Shown: positions 5,465 to 41,882 of the stretch, in pieces
How positions within the stretch are numbered: the first letter of the stretch is position 1
Layout: the number at the start of each line of letters is the position of its first letter
Assembly (NCBI GenBank): GCA_049274945.1
Contig: JBASTP010000006.1
Span: 96,529 to 160,528, forward strand
Source of the DNA: Patescibacteria group bacterium
GTDB taxonomy: Bacteria > Patescibacteriota > UBA1384 > GWA2-35-9 > JBASTP01
Direction of reading: 5' to 3'
DNA: 64,000 bases
The notes under the pieces: generated by a model
Seen by the model: the letters and a program-made list of their open reading frames with translations, nothing else
Database searches by the model: none
What the model was told of the DNA's origin: nothing
Position numbers and translations under genes: made by a program

Positions 5465-5466
5465 AC

Positions 5467-17154: not shown

Positions 17155-17157
17155 CTT

Positions 17158-17242: not shown

Positions 17243-17283
17243 GTTGGGAAATGAATTCATTTAATTTAGCAGTATAACCATAT

Positions 17284-17557
17284 ATGAAACTGGTTAAGAA
17301 GATTACGCGAGTGGGAGTTGAACCGGAGCCCAGAGTGCCAACGGATCTTCGCAAAGCCCTCGCGGCTGCCCCCGAGGTTGTGGCAGTGTGGAAGGATCTC
17401 ACGCCAATCGCGCGCAGGGATTTTATCAGTTGGATCGAATCAGCCAAAACGTCGGGACTTTGTTGATTGGATAGATTTAGCGAAAGAACCGGAGATACGT
17501 ACACGCAGGATTGAGAAAGCCTGCGATATGCTTGCGGCCGGAAAGCGCCGCCCGTGA
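17284..17557 (+). pseudogene. YdeI/OmpD-associated (DUF1801-like) protein gene disrupted by a +1 frameshift
   Basis: Frame A (17284-17466) gives ...PTDLRKALAAAPEVVAVWKDLTPIARRDFISWIESAKTSGLC*. Frame B (17318-17557) continues RRDFVDWIDLAKEPEIRTRRIEKACDMLAAGKRRP. The family motif RRDF-x-WI-x-AK occurs twice in adjacent frames. Confidence 0.4.
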
Positions 17558-17653
17558 TGTTTTTCAAATAAAAACTTGCCTGTCCGCCATAGCTCGTAAG
17601 AGCGACGGCGGAAAATCGTCCTTCAGACACCGCATTTTTCAAAATACGCCATT

Positions 17654-17875
17654 ATGAGCAGTACGTTGTTTAAGAGATGGGGCTGGATATATAGGCCGAG
17701 TAGTATTCTTGGCTGGGTAGCCACGGTGGCTACTATTGCGCTCATCGGGTGGGTTTTTATGGCAGTCGATCGCAACTCCCACTCTGCGAGCGATACCTTG
17801 ATTGGCGTATTTCCCTGGGCGTGGATCTTTTTGGCAACGCTCAACTGGATTGCCTCAAAAACAAGTTCTCGGTAA
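17654..17875 (+). CDS. hypothetical small membrane protein
   Basis: 73 aa with two TM helices. Immediately upstream of pilB on the same strand. Confidence 0.3.
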   Translation: MSSTLFKRWGWIYRPSSILGWVATVATIALIGWVFMAVDRNSHSASDTLIGVFPWAWIFLATLNWIASKTSSR

Positions 17876-17920
17876 ACATACTGCAGAGCATTTAGCTGGT
17901 AGATCGAGTACAATTAATTT

Positions 17921-19441
17921 ATGCCCGACATTAGCAGGCAAATTGCGGCGATCCGCCACGAGCAGGAAGAAGGCAAAACCGGCGAGCTCGCCGCGGCCCA
18001 AGGTCTGCCCTACATCGACCTCATCAGCTATCCGCTTACTCCGGAAACGTTACGGATTGTCCCTAAAGCCGATGCTCTGTCCCATCGGGTAGTGAGTTTT
18101 TTGAAGGTGGGCAAAAAGGTTAACGTTGCCACCGATCAACTGGCCCAGAGTTCGATTAAGGATTACCTCAAGGGGCTCGCCGATTCCACCAAACTTTCCT
18201 TTGCCATCCACCTTGCATCCCCCACCTCGCTTGATCGCACGATTGGCCTCTACGATGTTTTTGAAGCCGAAGACGAAAAAAAGATCCTTACTAAAAGTAA
18301 AGCGACGACCGATTTTGCCCAGATTATTAAAACCATTGACGATGTAGCCAAGGAGTTGCCCAAGGTTTCAACCACCGATTTGCTGGAGCTCCTCCTCACC
18401 GCCGCCGTTAAACTTGAGGCATCTGATATCCACCTCGAGCCGGAGCAAGGCGCTTGCCGGTTGCGACTGCGCTTGGATGGGGTGATGGAGGATATTGGTC
18501 GGCTTACGCTCGAACAACACCGGGCGCTCAACTCGCGGATCAAAAATCTCAGCCAGCTCAAACTCGATGTCCGCGACAAACCCCAGGATGGCCGATTCTC
18601 AACCAGGGTGATGGCACTCGATGTCGACGTTCGGGTTGCCACCTTGCCCTCGAGCTACGGCGAGGATATTGTGATGCGGCTTTTGATTCCCGCTCGCCAA
18701 CTCACCACGCTGCAGGCACTCGGTTTCTCAAAAGAGGTTTTGGAATTGGTGACTGACGCGATCGCCAAACCGCACGGCATGATTTTGAACACCGGCCCCA
18801 CCGGTTCTGGGAAAACTACCACGCTCTACGCCATTATAAGCCAGCTCAACAAACCGGGCCGCAAGATTATTACGATCGAGGATCCGATCGAGTACCGGCT
18901 CGCCGGAATTGACCAAAGTCAAGTGGAAGTGGAAAAGGGTTTTACGTTTGCCTCGGCGCTCCGATCGGCGCTCCGGCAAGACCCCGATATTATTATGGTG
19001 GGGGAGATCCGCGACAGCGAAACCGCCAAGATTGCCCTCAATGCGGCGCTGACCGGCCACCTGGTGCTGACAACCTTGCACACTAACAATGCCGCTGGCG
19101 CGATCCCGCGGCTGCTTGAAATGGGGATCGAACCATTTCTGCTCGCTGGCTCGATCAACCTAATTATTGGCCAGCGGCTGGTGCGCCGGCTCTGCCCCCA
19201 CTGCAAAGGCGCCAAATGCCTGCGCTGCCGCAAGCTCGGCTACCACGGTAGAATTGCCGTGGCCGAGGCGCTCAAGCCTCAGGCGGCGTTTAACGAACTG
19301 ATCGGCCGCAAGGCCACGATCGCAGAGTTTGAAGCCAAGGCCAAGGAATTTGGCATGACCACCATGCTTGAAGATGGGCGTGCCAAGGCCGCCCAAGGCT
19401 TGACGACTAGAGAGGAAGTGGAGCGGGTGGCGCAAGAGTGA
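17921..19441 (+). CDS. pilB: GspE/PilB-family secretion ATPase (type IV pilus / T2SS assembly ATPase)
   Basis: N-terminal GspE_N-like domain. Walker A GPTGSGKTTTL, Asp box, Walker B IIMVGEIRD and His box LVLTTLHTNNA. C-terminal tetracysteine CPHCKG...CLRC. Confidence 0.8.
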   Translation: MPDISRQIAAIRHEQEEGKTGELAAAQGLPYIDLISYPLTPETLRIVPKADALSHRVVSFLKVGKKVNVATDQLAQSSIKDYLKGLADSTKLSFAIHLASPTSLDRTIGLYDVFEAEDEKKILTKSKATTDFAQIIKTIDDVAKELPKVSTTDLLELLLTAAVKLEASDIHLEPEQGACRLRLRLDGVMEDIGRLTLEQHRALNSRIKNLSQLKLDVRDKPQDGRFSTRVMALDVDVRVATLPSSYGEDIVMRLLIPARQLTTLQALGFSKEVLELVTDAIAKPHGMILNTGPTGSGKTTTLYAIISQLNKPGRKIITIEDPIEYRLAGIDQSQVEVEKGFTFASALRSALRQDPDIIMVGEIRDSETAKIALNAALTGHLVLTTLHTNNAAGAIPRLLEMGIEPFLLAGSINLIIGQRLVRRLCPHCKGAKCLRCRKLGYHGRIAVAEALKPQAAFNELIGRKATIAEFEAKAKEFGMTTMLEDGRAKAAQGLTTREEVERVAQE

Positions 19442-19704
19442 TGGCGTGGATCAAAGCTTCAAATCTACTAGGTAAATATGCCGGGAACCGTCAGTTTCAC
19501 GCTGCGTATATTTGTAGCGTGGCCCAACAGGTCCTGGGCAATGAAGCGGTTGTGGTGAGCTTTCGAGACGGCAAGCTAGTTCTTGCTATCGTCTCATCGG
19601 CCCAAGCAGCGAGTATCCAGATTCAGTCAGACCAAATTCGTAAGGCGATCAACGAAAAATTGGGGCAGGAATTTGTCACAAGGTTTCGGTTCCGTGCCAG
19701 CTAA
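19438..19704 (+). CDS. DUF721-like small protein (DciA-like)
   Basis: 88 aa. LGNEAVVVSFRDGKLVLAIVSSAQAASIQIQSDQIRKAINEKLG resembles the DUF721 core. ATGA overlap with pilB. Confidence 0.35.
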   Translation: MMAWIKASNLLGKYAGNRQFHAAYICSVAQQVLGNEAVVVSFRDGKLVLAIVSSAQAASIQIQSDQIRKAINEKLGQEFVTRFRFRAS

Positions 19705-20687
19705 GCACGGAGTATTGCGCACTGCTCTATAAAACCTTCGTTGAAACTATTAAACCGCGATTGCTGGGTAGCAGGGTCATAGCTGTTATTAGGTAGACCA
19801 AGCACTCTGACGATCTCCCGATCGCAGGTTTCCGGCCTTGGGCGTGCCCTAATCTCATGAACCGAACGGTTTGCTGCTTGGCATCCTTCTTTTTTGGCGA
19901 TTCCTTCAAGACCGCTCGTTACTGTTGGACAGCTCGGTGGTTGCGCTGGCGGGGCGAGCGCCTCGGGGCCGTAGAGCGAAACGAGAAAGGCCGACATCAT
20001 AAACACGGTGGCAATGCCAAAGATCGCCCCGGCGATCATTTCTTTGGCGTGTGCGGTCGCCTCCGGCGACCCGCCGGAGTTCAAGTAACCGAACCCGGCG
20101 TAGACCACCACGAGCGTGGCCGCCACCACCGAGAGCACCATCGCCACCTTGACGAGATCGGTGAGGTAGTCGCCGAGAGTTTGGTAGGTTTTCCCTCTGA
20201 AGATGGGGCTCAAGTCCGGGGAAGTGTAGCTGATGATGCCCGATCTGCTGGGGGTACTCGATTGAGGCGTGTAGTTGGTGTTGCCGGCGATATTGAGTTT
20301 GATAATCGGGACATTGTTTGCTCCCGTTTTTTGCGCGGTGAATGTGGCAGTGGCTGTGGCGGTTAAGGGATTAGGCGCCGTGACCGTTAGCAGAATACGG
20401 AGGGTGTTGTTACCGCCAAATTCTGTTTCCGGGATGTCAAAATGGAAACCACCCTGCTCACCAGTTGATGTTGATTTAGGGAAGAATCGGCTTGGTCCAG
20501 TATCAGCGCGGGTGACCGTAACTCCGGCTCTCTCGATTGCCTTTTGGTCAATGCTGCTCGCAACAGTGCCGGCAACGCGCGCATCGGCAGCTCGTACCGA
20601 GCTCATAAACGAGAGCGCTAAGAAGACGGCTAAAAATGCAGCGAGCGATATTTTTTTAATTTTGAAATTGCATTTTGACTTTTGCAT
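19701..20687 (-). CDS. pilin-like protein with N-terminal Ig-like beta domain and Cys-rich C-terminus (paralogue 7)
   Basis: Start moved to the ATG at 20687 (MQKSKCNFKIKKISLAAFLAVFLALSFMSSVRA signal peptide). The track start at 20924 would overlap the giant gene. C-terminal pilin module YAGFGYLNSGGSPEATAHAKEMIAGAIFGIATVF, then a 4-Cys tail. Confidence 0.55.
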   Translation of the reverse strand: MQKSKCNFKIKKISLAAFLAVFLALSFMSSVRAADARVAGTVASSIDQKAIERAGVTVTRADTGPSRFFPKSTSTGEQGGFHFDIPETEFGGNNTLRILLTVTAPNPLTATATATFTAQKTGANNVPIIKLNIAGNTNYTPQSSTPSRSGIISYTSPDLSPIFRGKTYQTLGDYLTDLVKVAMVLSVVAATLVVVYAGFGYLNSGGSPEATAHAKEMIAGAIFGIATVFMMSAFLVSLYGPEALAPPAQPPSCPTVTSGLEGIAKKEGCQAANRSVHEIRARPRPETCDREIVRVLGLPNNSYDPATQQSRFNSFNEGFIEQCAILRA

Positions 20688-20712
20688 TTTGAGGTTTGAG
20701 TTTGAGGTTTCG

Positions 20713-23700
20713 TTAAAACCCGATATGAACATGTTGGGTAACCAATGGGGAGATACTGATACCCTGGCGGTTTTCCTTGGATGGGGCATCTTCATTGAAG
20801 ACTTGTTTGTAGCGGTCAGAGCCAAAGAAGGCGAGCAGGTCTTGCTGTCGGGCGGTAATGATCTGAACCGGTTTTGTTGAAAAGTCAGGTTCCTTTTGCC
20901 GCACGCCCACGAAGTTTTTGTCAATAAAGTAATAGGGCATCTCCATCATATCAGAAATCAAACCGTTGACTCGGACCCGGGCAGCCTGTTTAAGCCCTGC
21001 GCGGTACTCGGTCGCCGCCATGCCGTTAAACTCGGGCAAGCCAATCGCGAGATTTGGGTTGAGAGGCTCAATTTGCGGGTAGTAGCCGTCGCCGGTGCAC
21101 AGCACAAAGATTTTTACCTTGTTGAAGCCAAAAAGGTTGAGGGCGATAAAAAGGCCAAGCGTAATCGGGTTTAAGGCCGCGCCCATCAGCGCCGCGATGC
21201 CCATGCCGATCAAGATTGCGCCGGTGCCTGGCACGAGGCCGAGCGCTTGCTCCATCTGCCCCACCTGTTTGGCAAACACGATCGTAACAACAATCGTAAT
21301 CATTAGGGTATAAGCATCACTAAGTTTCGACCCGGCATCCTGAATCGCCGGATTACCTAAGGTAAAGGTGCTTTGAGCTGCCGCAAATGCTGCTTTGGCG
21401 TGGAGGAAGTTTTGAGTGGCAAAGTAGATTTGGGCGGCATTGCCGACTTGCCAGCCCATTTTACTGTCAAGAAATTGGAAGGCTTGCGAGACTGCCCACT
21501 GGCCGTAGATGCCGACAATTGTTCCCGGAGTATTGAGGTTGCCCAGCGCTCCGGTGCGGCCGTACTGGAACAGCGCCTGGGTAGTGCCCGGCTTCCACAG
21601 GTCGCCAAAGAGTTTCTTTTGGATCACAAACTGATCGAGTGAGCCGAGCGCGCCGGTTTGCACCAGCCTGTCATAGTTTTGCCCCGAAGAATCACGAAGG
21701 TACGCTCGGGCGGCATCGAGCGACCCCTGCGCTAAATGAATGCCAAGAATGTTGTGGTTATTAATCAGGTTTTCCGCGTAATTTAGGAGCGAGGTGGTGC
21801 GCTCTTGGGTGGTGCCTTCGAACATCGCCCGAGCAAACCCAGCAGGAATGTTGATGTCGGCTTTGTAGAGTTGGTTGTCGATTAGGCGAAATTGGAATTC
21901 ACTCTTGCGTTGGGAGCGAACTCTACTCCGTTCGTTCTCGGTTTCGGCGGCAGCTTGGGCTTGGGCGAGGACTCGTTGTTGCGCTTCGTCAGTCACACCC
22001 GATTCCTCGGCGAATCTTAGCGCGCTATTGTAGGCATCTTCGCGGAACGCCTCGAGGCGGCTCTCATCGTCAGCCGGCGCGCGCAGCGAATTGACAATTA
22101 CCTCATAGGTAATCTGGCGGTCTGGCGGCAGAAGATTGCCGTTTTTATCTTTGTTGAGCGAGCCCGCCATGTCAGCGGCGGCGACAAAGCCCAAAAAGCG
22201 CATGTCGCCATGGATCAGTGATTGAATATCGCTATCTGGCATAACAATACCACCGCGGCCTTGCCGATCTTGGGTGCGCGTAAAAATTTCGCTGCGCGCC
22301 GCGAGCGTAAACTCATTTTCAGCGGCATCTCTGACGACTTGCGGCTGGCGAGTTGCATCAGCCTCAAAGGAAATATTAAAGACACGCGAGAGCGGCCCGT
22401 CGTGCACGCCATCGTTCAAGCCAAATTGGTTTTCGAGCTTGAAGACCCCCTCGGTTAGGAAGACTTTCCGCGCGTTTTCCGGTTCTGCGGCAATGAGCGA
22501 GAAGGTGCCGGTGCGCACCCCAAGCTTGCTGTCAAATCTGATGCTGAATACGGTATCGAGCGCGCTGTAAAATGATTGGCGATCTTGTGGCCGCCAAGCA
22601 GCAACGTCGGTCACTGAGTTGCGTCGCAGTAAATCAAAAACGATCGGAAACTGGGAATTGAAATTGTCCCTGGCCGTGCCCTCAAGTCCAAGCACATCCG
22701 CTAACCGATCAATCAGCGCTGTCGAACGGGCAAGCGTGTCTGCAATCGAGAAGTCCCCCACCTTCTTGGCATAATTCGCCGGACTAAGCTCACCCTTCAG
22801 CAATTTTTCGGTAGCGCCGATTTCAAGCCGCAGTTTTTCGTCAACCTCTTCAATGGTTAGTTCCTTTTGTTCGTTTGCGACCTCGCCGCGCCGGAACTGA
22901 TCAATAATTCTCCAAGCGCCGTCTCGGCTTATCGCGTTGCCGTTTACTCGGCTAAGGTATGCCAAGGCGGCGTTTTGGGGGCCTATGGTAGTGATCGACT
23001 GAGGCAACGAGAGAGTTTCAATCGCTCGCCCCAGCTCGCCAGGATCATAGCCCTCAAGAGACAGGCCGTTGGGGTGACCGGTCATCCGGAACGCGATCGC
23101 AAAATTAATCGGCTGGTTGCGCTCGATTACCTTATCGAGCGAATCGCGGAAGGTGCCGGGCTGCAGGCCAAGCGTTGCCTCAACCGCGTAGCGTCCTTGG
23201 ATTTCCTCCGGCACGCCAAAGATCGGCAGCGCCCCGATGCCTAAAAGATTGCCGAAGTAGTGCGATGCTACATCGGCCATGGCCAACCGCTTGTCGTCGG
23301 AGGAGGGGGCATGGAGCAGTTGGTAGAATACACTTTGGGGCAGATCGAGCACTTGCTCAAACTTCTGCGCGGCCACCCGTTCAAACACCGGCCTGCCACT
23401 ACCTGAGAGCATGTCGTAGATGTCGTAGGGGGTAAAACTAAGCCCGCCGAACTCTACGTTGATCCCCAGCAGGTTAACACCGCGCAGGAGCAGCACCTCT
23501 TTACCCACTCGTTCAAAGTACTGATCGGCTGTCAGTTCTTGGGTCGCCAGACGACTTGTGATTGATCGTCTGCCCGTTCCGATTCCCAGGATCGCATCGA
23601 TCTGTTCCGGTGTGTTTTGAGCGAGCGCTACGCGAATGGGTTGGCGGCCGAAATACTGCTCGTACTGGGCGCGCCCCACTGCCCTGAAGAACGTCTCGGG

Positions 23701-26382
23701 AGATTGCTCCCGCTCCTTGAGCGTGTAGAAGATTGCCCGCGGCGGCAGCTCGAGCGAATTTTCAACTTGTCGTGCGCCAATTGAGAGTGCCAAATCTTTG
23801 GTGGCGCGTCGGCCATTCAACCAATCAAATAAGTCTCGAGCGGCAATAAGGTTGTTTGAGCGGCCGCGCTTGCCCGTTTGACTGTAATCGGCAAGCCTTA
23901 CATCGCTGATTTGTCTTGCGGGCGTGCCACTCACAAGTTCCTCGATATCACGGTACATTGCGCTGAGCTCATTTTGGATTTGAGTGCGCAGAGCTTGTTC
24001 ATTGAGCGGCCCGACGGCGCTTGAAATAGCATCGAGCGATCGCGAGATTTGTCTCACTGCGTTCGCCGAGTTTTGGAAATTAAGCGGGCTGCGGAAAAAC
24101 TGATCAAGACTGGATTTGATTGTGTTAACTTCAGTTCTAATGGCTGGGTCGCTCGTTGCCGCTCTGGTGAGTTGGTCTAAATTATCATTACGATTTTTGA
24201 GATCATCAAAACGGCTGCGGCGAAAATCATATGAGGCTCTGGCCTCGGCAATTTCTGGGTGCTCGGCCAAGAGTTCCTGCTCCCTATTATTGATTGCTTG
24301 TTGCACTTCGGTAGTATTTTGGATTGCCTGCACAAGCCTATCGCGGCCGATGCGTTTAAAAATAGGGACAGCGCCTTGGCCGGAGAAGATGCGAGCAAAT
24401 TCCCCGGGCCGCAACTTCGTCAATGACATAATTGTTCGTTCAGGGATTTGCCAATCGTTTGACGGATTTTCAAAAAAATTATTAATCGCCGAACGATCAC
24501 CATCGTTCGGCGACAATTGATTAACGAGCGCCTGACGGCCAATTACGGCAAGCACGGTTTGGTCACCATTCAATAATCTTCTGATAGTGCCAGCCGGTGT
24601 TGCATAAAAACTATTTTCTTGTGACTGTTCACTGTTCACAAAGTTGCGGAATGAGCCAAAGTTGTCATTGAGCAGTTTACTGCCAATCGCTCGTTTGTAA
24701 TCCGCAACACGGCCATTCAAGAAATCGGAAGCAGTCTTGCCATACGGCAACCCGACGAGTTCATCAATTGCGCTGGGTGATGAGGCAAACATAATTTGAA
24801 TTTTACGTTCGCCAAGTTGTCGTTTAAGCGTTGTCAAATCATTCGCCGCGAAGCTCCCCGCGGGCAATTTCATTTTAGTTTCGATCATTGCCTCGCCGAT
24901 TTTTTCCTCAAGCGCTGGACGCGAGTTCCAGGTACCCTGAAGGGTGTTTTCTTTAAGCCCAAGTTCTGACTCAAGTTTGCGGCGGCCAACCGAGGTCAAG
25001 ATCTCGCTAGCGTTATTACCACGCAGTGAGCCAATCGGGAGACCTAAGCGTTGTTCGATCGTAAATCGGCCTACTGAGTATTGGATATCATCAATTGTGT
25101 TGCCCTCAATCGCCTGTCGAGGCAAACCGAGCCGGTCAGCTAATACGGCACGGCCAAAGAGCTCCACGGTATCGCCTAGGGATGACCCGTCAAGGCCACG
25201 GCCGCCAATTGCCGATTCAATGAGGTGGCGGCCAATAAAGTCTGCCATATCCTGGAGGTTGGCGTAGCGCAAGCTGCCGTCATCGCCTAAATCATTGACG
25301 TCAAATTCAGAGAGCGTATCAAGCAGGGCATTTTGAATAAGATTTTGAGTGAGGTCGTTGATCGAGAGCCCCGGTGGGTTTTCTTGCGCCACGCCTTGGT
25401 CGGTTTGATAGCTCACTTTGATAGGTTTGGGCGGGAGTTTTTGGCGGTTGACCTTGCGGAGGATGATGCCCTTTTTGACCACTACCTTACTGCACTTAAT
25501 CGTTTCGATTTCCGAGATATCGAACGCCTGGCCTTGAGCATGGAGCGAGATGTTATCGGCCCCCTCGGTTTCTTTTGAGAGTGTCTTCTCGCGCAACGGT
25601 TTGCCGCTTTTGGGGTCCCGGGCCGTGTAGTTTTTCCAGATTCTGGCCACCTTAATGCGTTCGTGGCCGCCGCCGTCTTGCGCGCGCGGCGTGATGAGCC
25701 AGGCAAGGGCATCAACCACTCGACGATCGAGCGGGAAGTTCTGTTTGGTTTTTTGAACCAACTGATCGCCCGGCAGGTCACTCGCAAATACGATGCCTTC
25801 CAGGAAATCGCTCACCTCAATGGCCTCGCGTTGTTGCTCGATCAGTCGTTCGAGTGAGCTAAGAGCAACGCGCGATCGGTCGGTGAATATCTTGGTTTGA
25901 GTCTCTCGAACAAGCTCCAGCACTTGGTTTCTGCGCACTTCGTCCTGGAGCACGGCCCCTACCCCTTGCTCACCCTCAAAGCCCAGCTCGATTAGCTTTT
26001 GTTTGAAGTCGTTGAAGGTTGCCTGATCTTCTGCCGATACGTTGCTCGTGTTCTTGGTGTACTGGTCAGGATCAAGGTGGGCGCGCAGGATCGCGGCGTC
26101 TCGCGGGTCTAGGATGAGTTTGCCTTCTCTGGTGATCGGGTTTTTGAGTGCATCGAGTGTATCAGTGAGGGTGGCAAGTAGCGGTTCGGCCGTTTCACCG
26201 GGCGCCTCATTTGGATCAAGCGGATCGCTGTCGCCCTCACTGCCTAGTTCTTGGGCATAAACTGGTTTGGCAAACAAGGTCAGCGGGCTCACTTTTGGAT
26301 CAACTAACCAACTTGCGAATACCAATTCCGTGAGAATGAATCCAAGGATGATGCCCCGAATTATTAGACTCGTACTTTTCAT
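20713..26382 (-). CDS. giant (~1890 aa) secreted/membrane-anchored protein of the T4SS-like operon
   Basis: The ATG at 26382 (MKSTSLIIRGIILGFILTELVFASWLV signal/anchor) overlaps the upstream stop as ATGA. The TTG at 26427 is less likely. Long, mostly hydrophilic body. Several C-terminal hydrophobic helices (…ITIVVTIVFAKQ…GTGAILIGMGIAALMGAALNPITLGLFIALNLFGF…). Confidence 0.5.
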   Translation of the reverse strand: MKSTSLIIRGIILGFILTELVFASWLVDPKVSPLTLFAKPVYAQELGSEGDSDPLDPNEAPGETAEPLLATLTDTLDALKNPITREGKLILDPRDAAILRAHLDPDQYTKNTSNVSAEDQATFNDFKQKLIELGFEGEQGVGAVLQDEVRRNQVLELVRETQTKIFTDRSRVALSSLERLIEQQREAIEVSDFLEGIVFASDLPGDQLVQKTKQNFPLDRRVVDALAWLITPRAQDGGGHERIKVARIWKNYTARDPKSGKPLREKTLSKETEGADNISLHAQGQAFDISEIETIKCSKVVVKKGIILRKVNRQKLPPKPIKVSYQTDQGVAQENPPGLSINDLTQNLIQNALLDTLSEFDVNDLGDDGSLRYANLQDMADFIGRHLIESAIGGRGLDGSSLGDTVELFGRAVLADRLGLPRQAIEGNTIDDIQYSVGRFTIEQRLGLPIGSLRGNNASEILTSVGRRKLESELGLKENTLQGTWNSRPALEEKIGEAMIETKMKLPAGSFAANDLTTLKRQLGERKIQIMFASSPSAIDELVGLPYGKTASDFLNGRVADYKRAIGSKLLNDNFGSFRNFVNSEQSQENSFYATPAGTIRRLLNGDQTVLAVIGRQALVNQLSPNDGDRSAINNFFENPSNDWQIPERTIMSLTKLRPGEFARIFSGQGAVPIFKRIGRDRLVQAIQNTTEVQQAINNREQELLAEHPEIAEARASYDFRRSRFDDLKNRNDNLDQLTRAATSDPAIRTEVNTIKSSLDQFFRSPLNFQNSANAVRQISRSLDAISSAVGPLNEQALRTQIQNELSAMYRDIEELVSGTPARQISDVRLADYSQTGKRGRSNNLIAARDLFDWLNGRRATKDLALSIGARQVENSLELPPRAIFYTLKEREQSPETFFRAVGRAQYEQYFGRQPIRVALAQNTPEQIDAILGIGTGRRSITSRLATQELTADQYFERVGKEVLLLRGVNLLGINVEFGGLSFTPYDIYDMLSGSGRPVFERVAAQKFEQVLDLPQSVFYQLLHAPSSDDKRLAMADVASHYFGNLLGIGALPIFGVPEEIQGRYAVEATLGLQPGTFRDSLDKVIERNQPINFAIAFRMTGHPNGLSLEGYDPGELGRAIETLSLPQSITTIGPQNAALAYLSRVNGNAISRDGAWRIIDQFRRGEVANEQKELTIEEVDEKLRLEIGATEKLLKGELSPANYAKKVGDFSIADTLARSTALIDRLADVLGLEGTARDNFNSQFPIVFDLLRRNSVTDVAAWRPQDRQSFYSALDTVFSIRFDSKLGVRTGTFSLIAAEPENARKVFLTEGVFKLENQFGLNDGVHDGPLSRVFNISFEADATRQPQVVRDAAENEFTLAARSEIFTRTQDRQGRGGIVMPDSDIQSLIHGDMRFLGFVAAADMAGSLNKDKNGNLLPPDRQITYEVIVNSLRAPADDESRLEAFREDAYNSALRFAEESGVTDEAQQRVLAQAQAAAETENERSRVRSQRKSEFQFRLIDNQLYKADINIPAGFARAMFEGTTQERTTSLLNYAENLINNHNILGIHLAQGSLDAARAYLRDSSGQNYDRLVQTGALGSLDQFVIQKKLFGDLWKPGTTQALFQYGRTGALGNLNTPGTIVGIYGQWAVSQAFQFLDSKMGWQVGNAAQIYFATQNFLHAKAAFAAAQSTFTLGNPAIQDAGSKLSDAYTLMITIVVTIVFAKQVGQMEQALGLVPGTGAILIGMGIAALMGAALNPITLGLFIALNLFGFNKVKIFVLCTGDGYYPQIEPLNPNLAIGLPEFNGMAATEYRAGLKQAARVRVNGLISDMMEMPYYFIDKNFVGVRQKEPDFSTKPVQIITARQQDLLAFFGSDRYKQVFNEDAPSKENRQGISISPLVTQHVHIGF

Positions 26383-27596
26383 GGGAATGTTAGGTAGTAT
26401 GCGTTGGGGTAGCGGCCGCCGAACCAACGTTCATCGTCAATCAAATGAACCGGTGAATTTTTTTCTCGATAGGCTTGGGGCAGTTTGATCCGTGCACGGC
26501 CGTCCTTTGAACCAGGGTCGTTGACATAGGCCTCGCGGCCGTCCTCGGAGAAACCAACAATCGTCAGGAAGTGACTGCCCTTATTGGAGAAGTTCGTGCC
26601 GATTACCACCGGCGTTTTGGTGCGATCTACGATATCCCGGATTGTACGCCAGTCTTGATCAGACGGCCCCATCTTGCCAGAGCGGCTGCCGCCCAGCACA
26701 ATTTTTTCCACTTTGGCGTTGGGCAGACCTGCCTGGCTGGCGGCAAAACGGAGATAGCCCCCGGTATCTTTCGGGCAACTCCTCGGTGGATCAGTTCGAC
26801 CTGCTATAATTTTTTCTTCAAGCTCGCGGGGGTAGCTTTTCTTCTCAGGTGGTCCAGAACTTTTGTCGTATGCATGGTAGAGCACTGCCATCATCGCTGC
26901 GTAGTAGTTGCAAGTAGTCGAGTTGACTGGTTGGAGCCGCCAGGGCACCTTGAGGCGCTTTGAACCGCCAGGCAAGAACAGTTCGGCAGTAAGAAACTCA
27001 AAGCGCAAACCGAGGGCGTGGAGTTGCTGGAGTAAATTGTCTTGGCTACCAAGGTCGCTTGTCCCGCGAATTTTTTTGGCGAGTACCTCCATCTCCCGTA
27101 ATAGGTTGATCGCTTCGGTCCGCTTATCCTCAGCAATGTTAGCTCTGCGTAGACCCTCAATTGCTGTGTAAACTCGCGCATCGAGTTGACGCGACTCGAT
27201 CAACTCTCGTTGAAGGGTCGGGATCAGTCCCGCCGCTGACTGGACTCGCAGCAGGTTTTCCCGATCAACGCTATTTTCGCCGTTGAACGGTTCCGGCTCG
27301 TGGGTGCCCTGGGCTCTTAATAACCTTGAAGGTTGCCGATAGTACACAAAAAACGCCGCTCCGGCGATGAGCACCACCACGATGATCATTATGACTGCGG
27401 CAATCGGTCCGAGCGCCAATAGAGCCGCAAACGCAAACTGGATCCCCGCCTGGACGACCGGGATGACCATCTTTAGTTTATTGAGCGTACCGGCTATCGT
27501 ACGGAGTTGGTTAAGCTTGTCCTCAAATTCTCGCCGGGTCTGGCGGTAGCGCGTCGGCTCCTCCGAATCATCACTGATTGTTGGTTCATCGGCCAT
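26379..27596 (-). CDS. membrane-anchored papain-fold Cys peptidase (CHAP/C39-like), putative cell-wall hydrolase
   Basis: AAGGGGGTG RBS. N-terminal TM segment, coiled-coil region, then a C-terminal domain with candidate catalytic Cys (NSTTCNYYAAMMAV) and His (KGSHFLTIVGFSEDG) followed by Asp/Asn (AYVNDPGS). Confidence 0.45.
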   Translation of the reverse strand: MADEPTISDDSEEPTRYRQTRREFEDKLNQLRTIAGTLNKLKMVIPVVQAGIQFAFAALLALGPIAAVIMIIVVVLIAGAAFFVYYRQPSRLLRAQGTHEPEPFNGENSVDRENLLRVQSAAGLIPTLQRELIESRQLDARVYTAIEGLRRANIAEDKRTEAINLLREMEVLAKKIRGTSDLGSQDNLLQQLHALGLRFEFLTAELFLPGGSKRLKVPWRLQPVNSTTCNYYAAMMAVLYHAYDKSSGPPEKKSYPRELEEKIIAGRTDPPRSCPKDTGGYLRFAASQAGLPNAKVEKIVLGGSRSGKMGPSDQDWRTIRDIVDRTKTPVVIGTNFSNKGSHFLTIVGFSEDGREAYVNDPGSKDGRARIKLPQAYREKNSPVHLIDDERWFGGRYPNAYYLTFP

Positions 27597-27605
27597 TGCA
27601 CCCCC

Positions 27606-28826
27606 TTAGAGTTCTAACCACCATAGTTTGTCTTGAGCAATAAAGACTACATTTTTACCAGTTGCATCCATTCTAAATTGGTGTGCTCCTTCCGGCAGTT
27701 CGTTCGCCAACTTCAGGGCGAGAAAATTGTTGGTGTTAAGCTCATAGCTGCCAAATTGTTTACCCTGAGCGGAGTCGAAGGGTTCGAAGATTCCCGTGAT
27801 GCGATCCCCTGCGATTGCCAGGTCGCTAGCTTGGCCCTTAAATCCAAGCTTCAGCGCCTCCCCGAGTTTGATTGTGCCAAGTTCCTTGCTTGTACCGGTC
27901 GTTACTATTTGAAATGGTACTACCGTAAGCTCGCCATCGCGGGTTATAAGGAGCCGTTCGTTAGCCAGGAAAACACTGCTTGAGACGCCATCGGCAACTT
28001 TGCTGATTGTCTTGGTAGTGATGACGGCAAGGTAGGCGGCTTTGCCATCATTGACAAGGACGGTGTTACCGTCGGGTGAAATATTGAGCCGGGCACGATC
28101 GATCTCGACATCTTTGAGATCGATCAGCCGTTCAATTCGCTCCCGAGATCGCTCCGATCGCACCAGTGACCGTTCGGATGAAGGACTGTAGAGGTGGTAG
28201 ATCAGTTTGCCTTCCGGGTCGAACGCAAATGCGCGAGAATCACTATCGTATAGTTTGAACTCTTGGTGGAGCAGGTCGTACCGGGCAAAGTTATAAAGTC
28301 CTGAGCTGCCGGTACGATCGGCGAGCGTTGCTACGGAATAGTCAGGCGCAAACGCTACTTCGGTCAGCTCGCCCAGCACCGAGGGGGTAATCGGAATATT
28401 CTCAACTTTGGCACCTTCAGGGCCTTCCACAAACCGCAGCCGAAAGAGCGCTCTAGCTTGCCGGTTAAAGTAAAAAAATTGATCTCCCTCGGGATTGCTT
28501 GAGAGCAAATCAACCTGCTCTGCTACCACGAGTTTTGCTGAAGCCAGCTTCTTGAGCGAAGTCCGAATCCGTTTAATTTGCAGCGCCCGGATTTTTATGG
28601 TCTCCCGGTGCGGAACAAATCCTGGAGCGGTAACGGTAAGCTGGTAGCTGCCCGGCGTGAGCCGGCTCGTAAAGCCCACTTCTTTGCCATCGATTAGTAC
28701 CGTAGCGTTTTTTGGTTCAGGCAGCACAATAATGCTGCCAAGCCGATACGACACGGCAAACGCGATGGCGAGCGCGAGGAGGGGAATGGCGATAATCGCT
28801 ATCCAGAACCATATACGTGCCGTCAT
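27606..28826 (-). CDS. PEGA-domain membrane protein with beta-rich periplasmic domain
   Basis: N-terminal TM anchor. PEGA-like segment PKNATVLIDGKEVGFTSRLTPGSYQLTVTAPGFVPH. The remaining ~300 aa is beta-rich. ATGA overlap with the virB4 stop. Confidence 0.45.
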   Translation of the reverse strand: MTARIWFWIAIIAIPLLALAIAFAVSYRLGSIIVLPEPKNATVLIDGKEVGFTSRLTPGSYQLTVTAPGFVPHRETIKIRALQIKRIRTSLKKLASAKLVVAEQVDLLSSNPEGDQFFYFNRQARALFRLRFVEGPEGAKVENIPITPSVLGELTEVAFAPDYSVATLADRTGSSGLYNFARYDLLHQEFKLYDSDSRAFAFDPEGKLIYHLYSPSSERSLVRSERSRERIERLIDLKDVEIDRARLNISPDGNTVLVNDGKAAYLAVITTKTISKVADGVSSSVFLANERLLITRDGELTVVPFQIVTTGTSKELGTIKLGEALKLGFKGQASDLAIAGDRITGIFEPFDSAQGKQFGSYELNTNNFLALKLANELPEGAHQFRMDATGKNVVFIAQDKLWWLEL

Positions 28827-30613
28827 GGTTGGTTAGGTTCAGATTTCGGTTGCTTGGTTGCCTGCTCGATCGCTAACAGTTGCCGGGGGTCGGTGGTAAT
28901 GAGTTGGTCCTCGATGTACGAAGCAACCACTTTAATTGCGACATGGTTTTTGCCCGCAAAGAATAAGCCTTCACCGACATCGGCTTCAAGGAGCAGAAAC
29001 TTTTCACCCTCAGTGAGATTAAACACCTCGGCAATTTTGTCGATCGCCGCGGTTGATTGCTTAAGCAGCACCTGCATCGCCGCGTTATTCAAGACCGCGC
29101 GGCCGTACTTGGAATCGAGGAAATCCTCGGCATCTTGGGTGATTACGGTCATACCGAGGTAGTACTTGCGGGCGCGTTTAACCAGGGCGTGAACGAATTT
29201 GGCCGAGTCTTCGTGGGCCATCATTACCCAGGCCTCGTCCATAATCACGAGGCGCCGCCGCAGCTCGCGGCGGATCTTGCCCCAAATATAGGAGAGGATC
29301 AAATACATGCCGATCGGCCGAAGTTGCTCTTCCAAGTCGCGAATCGAAAACACCACCAAGCCGGCAGTCAATTCAAAGTTAGTTGGTTTGGTAAACAGGC
29401 CCGCGAACGTGCCCTCGGTGTATTTTTGCAACCGTTTTACCAGGCTCTCGGCGCCGGTCATATTGGCAAGCACCGAGATGAGGTCGGGTAAAAGCGGCGG
29501 CGGATTTTTGTGGCTGGCCGGATCGGCGGTAATGTCTTTGAGGGCATACACTTCGTAGAGCGCCTTATCGAGGATTCCCGATTCGTCGGGGGTTAAGCCG
29601 CCGACCATCAAACTTATCAAACCTTCAACCATGGCAATGGTTGAACGGAGTACGTTCTCACCGGTCTCACCTTCGGTGAGCGGCGGCAGGTCGAACGGAT
29701 TGATCCTTTGGGTCGAGTTGAGCGAAAGGTTCATAAACGAGCCGCCGACTGCCTCGGCAAGCGCCCGGTACTCGTTTTCCGGGTCAATGATAATCACGTC
29801 CGTGCCCAGCATCAGGTAGCGGAGCGCCTCGAGCTTGACCATGTAACTTTTGCCGGCGCCCGAGCGAGCAAACACAATCGAGTTAGCGTTTTCTAAATCG
29901 AACCGGTCAAAGAGAATCAAGCTGTTATTATGCCGGTTGATGCCGTACAGGATGCCTCGGTTCGAAGAGAGGGTTGCCGAGGTAAAGGGGAACGTGGTAG
30001 ACAGTGATGCCGTGTCGAGGTTGCGCAGGACCTGGAGCTCATCGGCGCCGAGCGGCAGCGAGGAATTGAAGCCCTGTTCCATTTGCAAGAACGCCTGCTT
30101 GGTGTAAATCAGCATGCCGCCAAACGCACTCTCAAGTTGTTTGTTCAGTGAATCGAGCTCGCCCATGCTCGTGGCATACACCGTGATGTAGAGTGAGAAG
30201 TGGAAGATCCGCGTCTCACCTTTTTGGAGCACCTCGCGCAGGGCATCAATGTCGCCGACCGCGGTTTCAAGCTCCGGGTCGCGCACCAAACCTTTTTCGT
30301 GCTGGATCGCTACTGAACTTTCAAGTTGGGTCTGGCGTCGGCGGAGCTGGCCCATCACCTCGCGAGTTTCAACCGGGTAGATAAACATCGAAATGTCCAT
30401 GGGGATGTCGAAGTTAATCACCGGCGAGAGCCAGTTGGTGTTGAGATAGCGCGGGTAGGTGAACACGAAAAATGTCTTCACGTAGAGGTTGTTAAGTTCA
30501 AGGTAGTTAGGCGTGATCGCAAAGGCCGCCGGCGAAATAATATCAAGGAGGGTGGTTTCGCCCGCGTGGAGCTCTTTTTCTAATGTAGTCTCGTGGGTGG
30601 TTTGTTTGGCCAT
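28823..30613 (-). CDS. virB4: VirB4/TrbE/PrgJ-family T4SS ATPase
   Basis: Walker A FARSGAGKSYMV, DPENEY motif, Walker B RRLVIMDEAWVMM, and TVITQDAEDF (sensor/arginine-finger region). 596 aa, consistent with the Gram-positive-type VirB4. Confidence 0.7.
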   Translation of the reverse strand: MAKQTTHETTLEKELHAGETTLLDIISPAAFAITPNYLELNNLYVKTFFVFTYPRYLNTNWLSPVINFDIPMDISMFIYPVETREVMGQLRRRQTQLESSVAIQHEKGLVRDPELETAVGDIDALREVLQKGETRIFHFSLYITVYATSMGELDSLNKQLESAFGGMLIYTKQAFLQMEQGFNSSLPLGADELQVLRNLDTASLSTTFPFTSATLSSNRGILYGINRHNNSLILFDRFDLENANSIVFARSGAGKSYMVKLEALRYLMLGTDVIIIDPENEYRALAEAVGGSFMNLSLNSTQRINPFDLPPLTEGETGENVLRSTIAMVEGLISLMVGGLTPDESGILDKALYEVYALKDITADPASHKNPPPLLPDLISVLANMTGAESLVKRLQKYTEGTFAGLFTKPTNFELTAGLVVFSIRDLEEQLRPIGMYLILSYIWGKIRRELRRRLVIMDEAWVMMAHEDSAKFVHALVKRARKYYLGMTVITQDAEDFLDSKYGRAVLNNAAMQVLLKQSTAAIDKIAEVFNLTEGEKFLLLEADVGEGLFFAGKNHVAIKVVASYIEDQLITTDPRQLLAIEQATKQPKSEPNQP

Positions 30614-30617
30614 GGCG

Positions 30618-31346
30618 TTACTCCGGGTTAATCACGTTTAACTGGCTTGCTTTGTTTTCCACTTTCTTTTCTTCTTCGATTGGCTGTTTCTCAATGATCG
30701 GCGCCTCGATTACGCCCAGTTCGGTAAGCTGTTCCTCTTGTGACTCCTCGTGGTTGTACAGGCGATAAAACAGTTCAACAACTCCCTGGGTGTCCAAAAT
30801 GGTGGTAGTCATGCCCAAGGGGGCAAGCCCGCCAATCACCACCTGCGTGCGTTCATCGAGCGTTTTCTGGAACTTGCCGTAGTCGGCCGGTGAAAACTTA
30901 ATCTGCGATTTTCTGGTGCCAAAAAGGGAGCTGAAAAATCCCTGCTTGGTGGGACCCGGCTCAATTCCTACCACAACGTAGAATCGCTTCTCCATAATGT
31001 TCGCCAGCTGGGTAAGCCGTTTAATAAACTCGATATACTCGTTGGCATGGAGCCGTAGCAGCTCCGACTCAATTTTGTTGACGAACTTGGTGAGCGATTC
31101 CATGTAGGGGTGCAAGTCGAGCCGCCGGGAGTGCACGACAATTTGGATGGGGAAGTTGAGCGAGTTCAAAAAGCTCTGGAACTGGCCAACCATCGCCTGC
31201 TGCTCTTGCTCGGATTTGAGCGAGAAGTTCACTGGTGTTACCTCTACCACTTTGCGCAGTAAACCAGTCTTCGTGACTACAATACCATCGGCAACATTGG
31301 CAATGTTGACGTATCCCTGGGTTGATTGGACGACTTTTTTGGCCAT
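30618..31346 (-). CDS. hypothetical T4SS-associated protein (resembles the N-terminal domain of Gram-positive VirB4/PrgJ-like proteins)
   Basis: The ATG at 31346 (MAKKVVQ) is preferred over the track TTG at 31367. The pattern DGIVVTKTGLLRKVVEVTPVNFSLKSEQEQQAMVGQFQSFLNSLNFPIQIVV recalls the membrane-proximal N-domain of PrgJ/TraE-type ATPases. No NTP-binding motifs. Confidence 0.3.
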   Translation of the reverse strand: MAKKVVQSTQGYVNIANVADGIVVTKTGLLRKVVEVTPVNFSLKSEQEQQAMVGQFQSFLNSLNFPIQIVVHSRRLDLHPYMESLTKFVNKIESELLRLHANEYIEFIKRLTQLANIMEKRFYVVVGIEPGPTKQGFFSSLFGTRKSQIKFSPADYGKFQKTLDERTQVVIGGLAPLGMTTTILDTQGVVELFYRLYNHEESQEEQLTELGVIEAPIIEKQPIEEEKKVENKASQLNVINPE

Positions 31347-31353
31347 GGTTATT

Positions 31354-31719
31354 TCAATGGATATCAAGCCGCTGGGCTACCCCGCGGATTATTCCTAAGT
31401 CAAACTTTTTCGGCACTGGCCGTACTACCGGTTGTTTGGTACCCGGTGCATCGGCAATGGTTACTACCGCGGTTGGCCCTTTGTGCCACACCCAGGTTTT
31501 CGGCGTCAGGTTGTAGTGGATGAGCGAGCCGAGAAACTTGGAAAATGGCTGGTCTTGGACTTTCACGAACGCGAATGCCAGCGCTAGTACCACCACCGGT
31601 ATGCCAAACGCGATAAAGAGGTACAGCGAGATTTTGAGCAGGGCATAGGCAAACATGCCGCCCGTAAGCAGGTACAAAAATTGGAACAGGGTGAGCGGCC
31701 CAAAGATTTTATCCTGCAT
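31354..31719 (-). CDS. VirB3/PrgI-like small two-TM protein (short form; 5' end uncertain)
   Basis: The track ORF extends to 31920. That would overlap the metK start codon and promoter head-on, so the ATG at 31719 (MQDKIFGPLTLFQFLYLLTGGMFAYALL...) is preferred. Two adjacent TM helices plus a short hydrophilic tail, immediately upstream of virB4. Confidence 0.35.
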   Translation of the reverse strand: MQDKIFGPLTLFQFLYLLTGGMFAYALLKISLYLFIAFGIPVVVLALAFAFVKVQDQPFSKFLGSLIHYNLTPKTWVWHKGPTAVVTIADAPGTKQPVVRPVPKKFDLGIIRGVAQRLDIH

Positions 31720-31833
31720 ATCGATATTTTGCGGAACCTTATACTGCGCCACGGCGAAAAAACCTCCTTCTCCCTCCTTGGGGAGAACTACCTGCCCCGC
31801 GTAGCCCAGAGCTTGGCGAAGGGCGTAGCGGGG

Positions 31834-31863
31834 TTGACTATTGAACCTAATTGTTTGTATTAT
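31834..31863 (+). promoter_or_regulatory. putative sigma70-type promoter of metK (possibly leaderless)
   Basis: TTGACT (31834-31839), an 18-nt spacer, then TATTAT (31858-31863). The metK ATG at 31871 lies only 7 nt downstream of the -10 element, and there is no SD. Confidence 0.3.
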
Positions 31864-31870
31864 ATCACCT

Positions 31871-33025
31871 ATGCATCGACTTTTCACTTCAGAGTCAGTC
31901 ACCGAAGGCCATCCGGACAAGATTTGCGACCAGATCAGTGATGCCGTTTACGACGAAATGCTTCGTCAGGACAAAAAAACTCATGCCGGCATTGAATGTT
32001 TTGTCACTACCGGGTTGGTAGTGGTTGGCGGGGAAGCCCGCACCAAGGGTTATGTGGACATTCATGAAATCGTGCGCCGCACCCTGAAGAGAATCGGCTA
32101 CGATAAACCCGAGTATGGTTTTTGCTACACCGACGTCGGGGTGATTTCCACGCTCCACGAGCAGTCGCCGGATATCGCCCAAGGGGTGGACAAAAACCGC
32201 GGAGAATTCAAAGAACAGGGGGCGGGTGATCAAGGCTTGATGTTTGGTTTTGCCTGTGATGAGACAAAAGAACTCATGCCGCTACCCATTACCCTGGCAC
32301 ACGGTTTGACTCGCCGATTGGCCCAAGTCCGTAAAAATGGCAAGTTGCCGTATCTGCGACCAGATGGCAAATCACAAGTGAGCGTTGAATATTTGGATAA
32401 CAAACCGAATCGGGTTACTGCAGTAGTGATCGCGGCCCATCATTCAGAAGGCGTGACGACCGAGAAATTGCGCGGTGATATTAAAAAATTTGTCATCAAA
32501 CCGGTATTAGGAAAATGGCTTTCGCCTCAAACCAAGATATTTATTAACGCTACTGGCAGATTTGTGCTCGGCGGCCCGCCGGCGGATGCTGGCTTGACTG
32601 GCCGGAAAATTATTGTTGACACCTACGGCGGCTATGCGCCGCACGGCGGCGGTTGTTTTTCAGGGAAATGCGTAACCAAGGTGGACCGAAGCGCGGCGTA
32701 CGCGGCCAGATACATTGCCAAAAATATCGTGGCAGCCGGGTTGGCAAAAAAATGCCTGGTGCAATTAGCCTACGCCATTGGCGTGGCTAAGCCAGTATCC
32801 GTGATGATTGATACCTACGGGACCGGTGCAGCGGCCGATGGGGATTTGGAAAAATCCGTGGAAAAGATTTTTCCGCTGAAGCCCGCTGATATTATCCGCG
32901 TGCTCGATCTGGAGCGACCTATATATGAACAAACCGCGGCGTACGGCCACTTCGGCCGCCCCGATTTAGATCTCCCGTGGGAAAAAACGAATAAGGTTAA
33001 TGAGCTCAGGCGAGCGATTCGTTAA
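31871..33025 (+). CDS. metK: S-adenosylmethionine synthetase
   Basis: [26 protein letters not shown]. Glycine-rich [17 protein letters not shown]-terminal GGGCFSGK. Confidence 0.9.
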
Positions 33026-40554: not shown

Positions 40555-40663
40555 GAAAAGGCGGCCCCGACCTTCCTCCGAAAAGCTCGGATTGGGTCGG
40601 GACCGCGTCTCGCTAATTCAGTTGATCTTAATAAACTGTTCTAGCGAGGGTATGACTGGGTCT

Positions 40664-41881: not shown

Positions 41882-41882
41882 G

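Follow-up and report, generated by a model that had tools for sequence, protein, structure and literature searches.

We analyzed a stretch of 64,000 nucleotides (nt) from a Patescibacteria group bacterium (the window), positions 96,529 to 160,528 of contig JBASTP010000006.1 in assembly GCA_049274945.1. A run of seven co-directional genes on its minus strand (19701-31752) is very probably the core operon of a chromosomal, origin-proximal type IV secretion system (T4SS) of the Patescibacteria (candidate phyla radiation [CPR]) in a Berkelbacteria-like genome. The system is derived from the conjugation machinery of monoderm bacteria, of the mating-pair formation class FATA (MPF-FATA), and repurposed for host-cell interaction, and it belongs to a published kind of machine. 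The original prediction for this DNA, made from the sequence alone, was of a Gram-positive-type, T4SS-like, piliated, lineage-specific, and nonconjugative CPR apparatus. VirB4 scores, synteny, and the literature support that description, which is also the conclusion reached in earlier publications (PMC10633639, PMC12102498, and PMC12857230). For the functional model, in which the machine is a host-contact conduit served by several accessory proteins, we see about an even chance of being correct.

The PrgI-TrsD-VirB4 module

The VirB4 ATPase (28823-30613, minus strand; ATG at 30613; 596 amino acids [aa]) lacks the canonical N-terminal domain. It scores above the cutoff of NF045971, the VirB4-like CD1110 family (361.7 bits; cutoff, 325), over profile positions 177 to 734 of 752, and it also matches the Pfam families P-loop_TraG, AAA_10, and DUF87 and the NCBIfam families TraC-F (177 bits) and VirB4_CagE (130 bits). 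The predicted Walker A (GAGKS) and Walker B (IMDEAW) motifs are found at aa 252 and aa 457, respectively. A closer affinity to FtsK/HerA-type ATPases had been named as the finding that would speak against a VirB4 identity; in Pfam, HerA/DUF87 reaches 32 bits and FtsK gives no match. The best solved structure is the C-terminal domain of Thermoanaerobacter VirB4 (4AG5; E = 3e-45), followed by TrwK of R388. There are weak matches to the DNA-import ATPases CedB and CedD (40 and 24 bits, respectively).

The gene upstream (30618-31346, minus strand; ATG at 31346) encodes a TrsD/TraC-like protein of 242 aa, which had been likened to the N-terminal domain of VirB4. It matches just the N-terminal ~120 to 180 positions of four VirB4/TrsD models in NCBIfam, namely VirB4_plasma (E = 4.6e-11; profile positions 101 to 282), TrsD/TraD NF041427 (E = 1.6e-06, under the full-length cutoff), CD1110 (positions 11 to 122), and TIGR00929 VirB4 (positions 10 to 132), and it is assigned to PF26593 (TraC-like) in precomputed annotation. 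These matches agree with the predicted identity; a PDB sequence search with TrsD returned nothing meaningful. Because VirB4 covers positions 177 to 734 and TrsD the N-terminal remainder, the canonical VirB4 is split into two proteins here, and in the pGO1 TrsD/TrsE subclass VirB4 is likewise encoded as two proteins. Both parts match the model of Mbov_0397, the VirB4 of a Mycoplasma integrative and conjugative element (ICE), below family cutoffs (TrsD, E = 4.6e-11; VirB4, E = 9.6e-75).

The first gene of the operon (31354-31752, minus strand) encodes a small PrgI/VirB3-like membrane protein of 132 aa, as predicted, with a match to PF12666 above the cutoff (31.3 bits; cutoff, 27) and one strong hydrophobic segment (aa 45 to 63). 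Judged by sequence, PrgI, TrsD, and VirB4 make up the membrane energizing module, as in the TrsC/TrsD/TrsE subclass of pGO1.

Organization of the operon

After refinement of the open reading frames (ORFs) and starts by codon and ribosome-binding site (RBS), all seven genes lie where they had been placed, with the expected tight packing (gaps of 25 nt or less or overlaps). In operon order, the spacings are 7 nt, 4 nt, a 4-nt overlap, 9 nt, a 4-nt overlap, and 25 nt. The sole coordinate to be revised is the start of prgI, formerly set at 31719. A GTG at 31752 is the better start: it is preceded by a strong RBS (GGAGGGAGAAGGAGG), and the NCBI gene call on a near-identical contig has 132 aa, so that the ATG at 31719 encodes an internal Met. 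Six of the seven genes have family matches in Pfam, NCBIfam, or precomputed annotation. The GC content of the operon (0.51 to 0.56) is the same as that of its flanks. A candidate promoter (31859-31887, minus strand; GTGAAA, 17 nt, TG-n-TATAAT) with an extended -10 element scored 10/12 in a consensus scan and lies within the 118 bp that separate the operon from the divergent metK gene; because the promoter and terminator scan gave site counts not above those of shuffled sequence, we treat it as a candidate.

Distribution and conserved gene order

VirB4 has at least 8,000 homologues at E values of ≤1e-10. Among the 120 best homologues listed (66 to 100% identical), every named source is a member of the Patescibacteria or Berkelbacteria; an identical protein is on record from a "Patescibacteria group" metagenome-assembled genome, and a 99%-identical one is labeled "Ca. 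Berkelbacteria." Species-representative genomes yielded 592 confirmed relatives, 80 of which (53 to 74% identity) were kept as loci, and synteny was counted over 85 loci. Nearly all kept loci are labeled Patescibacteria, with titles including Berkel-, Sacchari-, Kazan, Doudna-, Peregrini-, Peri-, Gracili-, Morani-, Falkow-, Magasanik-, and Buchananbacteria; some assemblies are titled Gammaproteobacteria, Bdellovibrionales, or Woesearchaeota. The grouping of VirB4 with the Patescibacteria is based on similarity ranking rather than on a tree.

A lack of synteny in related genomes would likewise have counted against the prediction, and we found the opposite. In all 63 loci that have a match, TrsD is encoded directly upstream of virB4 and co-oriented with it, and the same holds for PrgI in 57 of 58 (58 of the 85 loci having a match). 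Downstream of virB4, gene content is more variable. Homologues of the PEGA-propeller protein described below were detected in 11 loci, 10 of which have the gene downstream of virB4, and homologues of the giant protein occur downstream in 11 virB4 loci, all of them the closest, Berkelbacteria-like relatives. The wall hydrolase encoded downstream of virB4 differs from locus to locus and may be of the C39_2, NlpC/P60, amidase_3, M15_4, M23, or SLT_2 type, including SLT_2 combined with C39_2. The order DciA-recF-dnaN-dnaA follows the cluster in one related locus (L004) and follows a giant-protein homologue in another (L008), in which no virB4 was called within 10 kb. The conserved context, together with 53 to 77% identity of VirB4 across many candidate phyla, indicates vertical inheritance.

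Envelope proteins encoded downstream of virB4

The fourth gene (27606-28826, minus strand; ATG at 28826; 406 aa) encodes the predicted PEGA-domain membrane protein, with a transmembrane (TM) segment at aa 7 to 25 and a PF08308 match well above the cutoff at aa 30 to 92 (38.3 bits; cutoff, 20.8). The prediction can be extended by a TolB/WD40-like beta-propeller. A family profile of 11 sequences matches the WD40 structure 2YMU (E = 1.7e-24) and TolB (E of ~1e-13) over profile positions ~124 to 398. A single-sequence AlphaFold2 model of the protein has a predicted local distance difference test (pLDDT) score of 37.1 and is confident just in the TM helix and the PEGA domain.

The fifth gene (26379-27596, minus strand; ATG at 27596; 405 aa) encodes a membrane-anchored, C39-like (papain-fold) cysteine peptidase with two hydrophobic segments within aa 44 to 83. 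It had been proposed as a TM-anchored CHAP/C39-like peptidase, and the C39 half of that proposal has some support: Peptidase_C39_2 (PF13529) matches aa 216 to 361 at a borderline score, and Peptidase_C70 matches weakly. No CHAP or SLT match was found. Cys229 and His342 are candidate catalytic residues. A homologue in a related locus (L007) is 36% identical and also matches C39_2; a PDB sequence search with the protein gave nothing meaningful.

The sixth gene (20713-26382, minus strand; ATG at 26382) encodes a giant envelope protein of 1889 aa without a Pfam or NCBIfam match. The predicted size stands, but the protein is more than a surface protein of a general sort, having a membrane anchor at either end as well as a peptidase-like motif. 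It has an N-terminal TM segment (aa 5 to 23) and three hydrophobic segments at aa 1690 to 1762, with ~1650 residues between them that lack any such segment, and its middle is rich in repeats. The motif ISxHxxGxAxDxxEI at aa 278 to 292, followed by ...C...PIKVaWQ, is conserved among homologues. When the profile of this N-terminal domain was compared with the PDB, the only matches, all sub-threshold, were to the N-terminal domains of Sonic and Indian hedgehog at the motif (E of ~0.6). Pfam scans of five overlapping pieces of the protein gave noise and a weak match to Extensin-like_C (E = 0.2) at aa 275 to 306, overlapping the SxH motif. We take the motif as a sub-threshold hint of a Hedgehog/DD-peptidase (LAS) fold. 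The hint gains weight because SEML1_0007 of Southlakia epibionticum (1113 aa), encoded beside VirB4, has a structure-based Hedgehog/DD-peptidase domain. Membership in M15 was considered and is not claimed, because hhalign of the N-terminal domain against an M15_4 protein of locus L004 aligned the 17-residue motif alone (probability, 1.9%). An AlphaFold2 model of aa 190 to 420, built from a 5-sequence alignment, has a pLDDT of 40.6.

The giant protein belongs to a family that word-indexed searches recover poorly (2 to 3 relatives). Exhaustive HMMER with aa 190 to 600 as the query recovered 231 cluster representatives among 1.84 billion, and most of the 150 best matches are 1400 to 3200 aa long. 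Among these best matches, 139 members look full length; 119 of the 139 have an N-terminal TM segment, 120 have a TM-free middle, and 112 have hydrophobic segments in the last 350 residues, ~150 residues from the C terminus in the examples inspected. About 100 of the 150 best matches share a strongly conserved C-terminal module (aa 1660 to 1889, with HIGF as the last residues), for which Pfam scans and a PDB profile search gave no match.

Pilins and a VirB6-like protein

The apparatus had been described as minimal. It is not, because its genes lie in at least three places of the window: besides the operon, further pilin genes form an array at 2791-6207, and a gene for a VirB6/TrbL-like protein is found at 60227-63262.

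The last gene of the operon (19701-20687, minus strand; ATG at 20687; 328 aa) encodes a VirB2-like T4SS pilin that matches PF18895 (T4SS_pilin) just above the cutoff (27.0 bits; cutoff, 26.6). It has a signal-like segment (aa 13 to 31), an N-terminal extension of ~150 aa, pilin TM helices at aa 181 to 199 and 218 to 236, and a Cys-containing C-terminal tail, and it weakly matches the Mbov_0395 pilin-like family (E = 1.1e-3, below the cutoff). As predicted, it is a pilin paralogue. Beyond the replication-origin genes, six paralogous pilin genes form a plus-strand array (2791-3315, 3204-3674, 3677-4270, 4267-4968, 5075-5464, and 5467-6207). All six match PF18895 (22.6 to 43.8 bits), five of them reaching the cutoff, and phmmer with the domain of the operon pilin recovers all six. 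The fourth (4267-4968) has an extra C-terminal Ig domain resembling CarboxypepD_reg/Big_1. The array mirrors the essential SEML1_0014 to SEML1_0019 array of S. epibionticum, and an Hsp20 gene (139-534) lies near it, as in that species. On sequence grounds, the seven VirB2-like proteins, one from the operon and six from the array, are candidate pilus subunits.

A VirB6/TrbL-like polytopic membrane protein of up to 1011 aa (start unrefined) is encoded at 60227-63262 on the minus strand, 28.5 kb from the operon. It has at least five TM segments at aa 247 to 487 and no direct Pfam match. Homologues of its region from aa ~248 to 500 occur in 32 of the 85 virB4 loci, all on the virB4 strand and 2.4 to 9 kb upstream, and three of them match PF04610 (TrbL/VirB6) in the aligned region (L022, 31 bits [cutoff, 25.9]; L029, 20 bits; L067, 13.5 bits). 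Since the homologues occupy the VirB6 position and one passes the TrbL/VirB6 cutoff, we regard the protein as a putative displaced VirB6-like component and a candidate channel, an assignment that is transitive and supported by gene context.

The VirB6-like gene is flanked by ORFs at 56783-59917 (minus strand, 1044 aa) and 63172-63933 (minus strand, 253 aa) that have no Pfam match and no detectable homologue near virB4 in the 85 related loci. Conversely, in many Patescibacteria loci (L015 to L086), a protein family of 330 to 650 aa (31 ORFs) fills the slot between the VirB6-like gene and prgI; HMM searches and jackhmmer found no homologue of it in the window.

Genomic neighborhood and a PilB-like ATPase

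The operon is origin proximal, with dnaA, dnaN, recF, dciA, yidC, metK, and clpB around it. The chromosomal origin region comprises recF, dnaN, and dnaA (7782-11451, minus strand) and yidC (15879-16700, plus strand); dnaA lies 8.2 kb from the 3' end of the operon and ~8 kb from dciA. As predicted, a gene for a PilB/GspE-family ATPase (17921-19441, plus strand) and a DUF721 gene (19438-19704, plus strand) converge on the 3' end of the operon. The latter is dciA (PF05258, formerly DUF721), which begins with a 4-nt overlap of the pilB stop and whose stop codon overlaps that of the T4SS pilin gene at 19701-19704.

The PilB-like ATPase has a T2SSE match of 388.8 bits and an MshEN domain, and in NCBIfam it scores 437 bits with GspE and 425 bits with PilB (both below cutoffs) and 61 bits with VirB11. 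It is an orphan in the window, in which the scanned ORFs (≥110 aa) have no family match to PilC/GspF, PilT, PilM/N/O, or type IV pilins, and its membership in the T4SS is uncertain. In three Kazan-type loci, a PilB-like gene lies inside the T4SS operon (L021, 7768-9417; L023, 13291-14949; L024, 7972-9681), in the order VirB6-like (undetected in L021), PrgI, TrsD, VirB4, one ORF, PilB, and one ORF; in L024, housekeeping genes follow. In a Berkelbacteria UBA1384 locus (L018), PilB (16752-18338) comes right after a VirB2-like pilin and is convergent with the cluster. The convergence seen here may thus not be incidental. On the other hand, a PilB-like gene lies beside or inside the T4SS in just 5 of 86 loci, and the ATPase could be a VirB11 surrogate or merely adjacent. 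PilB is unmentioned in the 2025 survey of Patescibacteria T4SSs (PMC12102498).

Both the PilB-like ATPase and the giant-protein family are unmentioned as T4SS parts in the published descriptions of the Patescibacteria system that we consulted, and we list them as lineage-specific candidates. One may speculate, as a long shot, that Berkelbacteria and Kazan T4SSs recruited a PilB/GspE-type ATPase as a third motor that would act in place of VirB11 in the dynamics of the VirB2-type pilus, together with giant proteins of 1400 to 3200 aa. With their N-terminal DD-peptidase-like domain and conserved C-terminal membrane module, these proteins would pierce the wall as a stalk, reaching or opening the envelope of the host.

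Several other features of the window were noted. Between dnaA and yidC lies a low-GC island (11807-15043, minus strand; GC content of 0.38 to 0.43 versus ~0.53 in the flanks) that was probably acquired horizontally; it encodes a SAM methyltransferase, a DUF6190 protein, a DHDPS-family protein, and a class I/II aminotransferase. The T4SS operon is adjoined by a gene for a ClpB-like double-AAA+ protein with an N-terminal membrane region (33221-35887, minus strand; 888 aa), and in L002, L006, and L009, a ClpB-like gene in the same orientation immediately precedes prgI. An Hsp70/MreB-like ORF of 586 aa (42470-44230) is part of a same-strand run (39367-44795, minus strand) whose other ORFs (39367-40554, 40664-41881, 41883-42473, and 44238-44795) have no significant Pfam match. 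Two large overlapping ORFs at 46739-51125 (plus strand; 465 and 1000 aa) have no Pfam match and no predicted TM segment. A tRNA-Ser(CGA) gene (17158-17242, plus strand) is the sole RNA gene found in the window by Rfam and ARAGORN.

Proposed function and alternative explanations

As the original prediction had it, no relaxase, coupling protein (VirD4/TcpA), or VirB11 is visible: none of these families was matched in the scanned window ORFs, nor was an integrase or recombinase. Because no relaxase or coupling protein is nearby, the machine is most likely nonconjugative. Its most likely task would be to build a pilus or conduit reaching the host cell and to move proteins or host-derived material. 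In this model, the PEGA/TolB-like propeller protein would act as a wall-spanning scaffold that may replace the missing VirB8/PrgL. In place of VirB1, the C39-like peptidase would open peptidoglycan, either the cell's own or that of the host, as would the DD-peptidase-like domain of the giant protein. The giant protein may form a long stalk or adhesin outside the cytoplasm, with its conserved C-terminal module as the membrane anchor. By analogy with the S. epibionticum cluster, which is mostly essential by transposon sequencing (Tn-seq), the T4SS is probably indispensable for epibiotic growth.

Several points weigh against this interpretation. (i) The C39_2 match of the peptidase is borderline (24.7 bits; cutoff, 24). 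(ii) The DD-peptidase assignment of the giant protein consists of a motif and sub-threshold matches, and a conserved third zinc ligand was not seen. (iii) Both AlphaFold2 models are of low confidence, and hence we infer the scaffold and hydrolase roles. (iv) The VirB6-like assignment is not a direct one. (v) A VirB8-like protein (NTF2; PrgL/TraM/TcpC) was not found with Pfam or NCBIfam in the scanned window ORFs. (vi) A coupling protein or relaxase could lie outside the 64-kb window, and VirD4 homologues occur in many Patescibacteria genomes far from virB4 (PMC12102498). (vii) Essentiality is extrapolated from Saccharimonadia to a Berkelbacteria-like lineage.

The role of the Patescibacteria T4SS has been called "completely unknown" in a published perspective, and three alternatives to a host-contact conduit deserve consideration. 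The first is an uptake machine like archaeal Ced or Helicobacter pylori ComB that imports host DNA or other macromolecules into a cell unable to make nucleotides. A published perspective proposes the T4SS as a candidate route of nucleotide acquisition, comEC is dispensable in S. epibionticum, the combination of VirB2-like pilins and a monoderm envelope resembles Ced, and VirB4 weakly matches CedB and CedD. However, these scores are far below those with conjugal VirB4 families, and the operon has neither a CedA-like protein nor a gene for DNA binding or processing. We consider an uptake machine of this kind unlikely.

The second alternative is an organelle for attachment alone, in which the VirB4 module assembles a VirB2-type pilus that serves with the giant protein as an adhesin and nothing is translocated. 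It would account for seven pilin paralogues, some with Ig-like extensions, for a mostly extracytoplasmic protein of 1889 aa, and for the lack of a nearby coupling protein, and the high divergence of the pilin arrays is as expected for host-range variation. Yet 32 loci keep a VirB6-like channel protein in a syntenic position, two domains of the wall-hydrolase type exceed the usual need of pilus assembly, and type IV pili already serve Patescibacteria in adhesion, which together make this explanation improbable.

The third, a Gram-positive-type ICE apparatus that transfers DNA to other cells with its relaxase and coupling protein encoded outside the window, has in its favor the homology of VirB4, TrsD, and PrgI to MPF-FATA conjugation proteins, the ICE conjugal-transfer ATPases that are the best NCBIfam families, and the distant VirD4 homologues mentioned above, but we can all but dismiss it given the lack of relaxase, coupling-protein, integrase, and recombinase matches in the scanned window ORFs, the position in the core origin region at the GC content of the flanks, the signs of vertical inheritance across many candidate phyla, and the report that S. 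epibionticum can dispense with its t4cp homologue but requires the T4SS genes (PMC12102498).

A nonconjugative conduit to the host cell is thus the reading that we prefer. Few machines are known to be essential to epibiotic life in the Patescibacteria, a very large bacterial radiation that is mostly uncultured, and the T4SS is one of them; a requirement for epibiotic growth on a host has been shown for S. epibionticum alone, by Tn-seq. The present locus is a clean example from the Berkelbacteria lineage and does not represent a new kind of system. Its value lies in comparative and structural work, and its interest lies in the lineage-specific accessories, namely the giant-protein family and the PilB-like ATPase.

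Comparison with known systems

Homologues of VirB4, VirB6, and VirB2 and an array of secreted proteins were described across Saccharibacteria and other CPR bacteria by McLean et al. (2020). In the phylogeny of Quinonero-Coronel et al. (2025), the Patescibacteria VirB4 clade is sister to MPF-FATA (PMC12102498). The same survey reports TrsD as the most abundant partner and also describes PrgI, arrays of VirB2, a location close to dnaA, and the rarity of relaxases, and a 2025 review of T4SSs lists the Patescibacteria systems as a new branch.

Among conjugation systems, the MPF-FATA Trs systems of pGO1/pSK41 and those of CD1110/CTn2 have the same order of a VirB3-like protein, a separate TrsD, and VirB4, and no outer-membrane core components. 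In contrast to the Trs systems, no relaxase, coupling protein, VirB8-like protein, or TrsG/PrgK-type hydrolase was found here. VirB2-like pilins, which Gram-positive MPF-FATA systems lack, are present, and the genes are inherited vertically as part of the chromosome instead of residing on a mobile element. Archaeal Ced shares a VirB4-family ATPase, VirB2-like pilins, the lack of an outer membrane, and the lack of association with a relaxase, whereas CedA is absent here and the similarity to CedB and CedD is weak. The ICE of Mycoplasma (Mbov_0397 and Mbov_0395) offers another parallel, in that both systems belong to wall-poor or reduced monoderms with pilin-like T4SS proteins, but its genes are on a mobile ICE with a DDE recombinase, whereas those described here are in the core chromosome.

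The closest comparison is with S. epibionticum, in which most of the SEML1_0006 to SEML1_0019 genes are essential or growth defective by Tn-seq and in which the cluster includes pilins and is missing a coupling protein and relaxase (Wang et al., 2023; PMC10633639). The counterparts there, which correspond one to one and belong to the prototype cluster SEML1_0004 to SEML1_0019, are SEML1_0005 (PEGA), SEML1_0006 (two lysozyme domains and a cysteine proteinase), SEML1_0007, SEML1_0008 (VirB4), SEML1_0009, SEML1_0010 (PrgI), SEML1_0013 (TrbL/VirB6), and SEML1_0014 to SEML1_0019 (pilins); Tn-seq scores each of them as essential or growth defective. The two systems differ in several respects. The order after virB4 is PEGA protein, peptidase, giant protein, and pilin here, versus the 1113-aa protein, lysozyme, and PEGA protein in S. 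epibionticum, where the VirB6-like gene lies upstream of prgI instead of 28.5 kb away. The hydrolase described here is C39_2-like and has no lysozyme domains, a TolB-like propeller is fused to PEGA (406 aa versus 211 aa), and the giant family's 1889-aa protein has the DD-peptidase-like motif in its N-terminal part. The operon includes an extra pilin with extension domains, and an NTF2-like protein was undetected. Shared by both systems are PrgI, TrsD, a VirB4 without the N-terminal domain, a PEGA protein, a candidate hydrolase of the cysteine-peptidase type, a large protein with a Hedgehog/DD-peptidase-type domain (suggested here by a motif), a TrbL/VirB6-like protein (putative here), and an array of six pilins with an Hsp20 gene near it, with dnaA, dnaN, and recF alongside and neither a relaxase nor a coupling protein nearby. 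The fixed parts of the machine are thus PrgI-TrsD-VirB4, the VirB6-like protein, and the VirB2-like pilins, while other parts are swapped, namely the scaffold protein, the giant envelope protein, and the kind of wall hydrolase.

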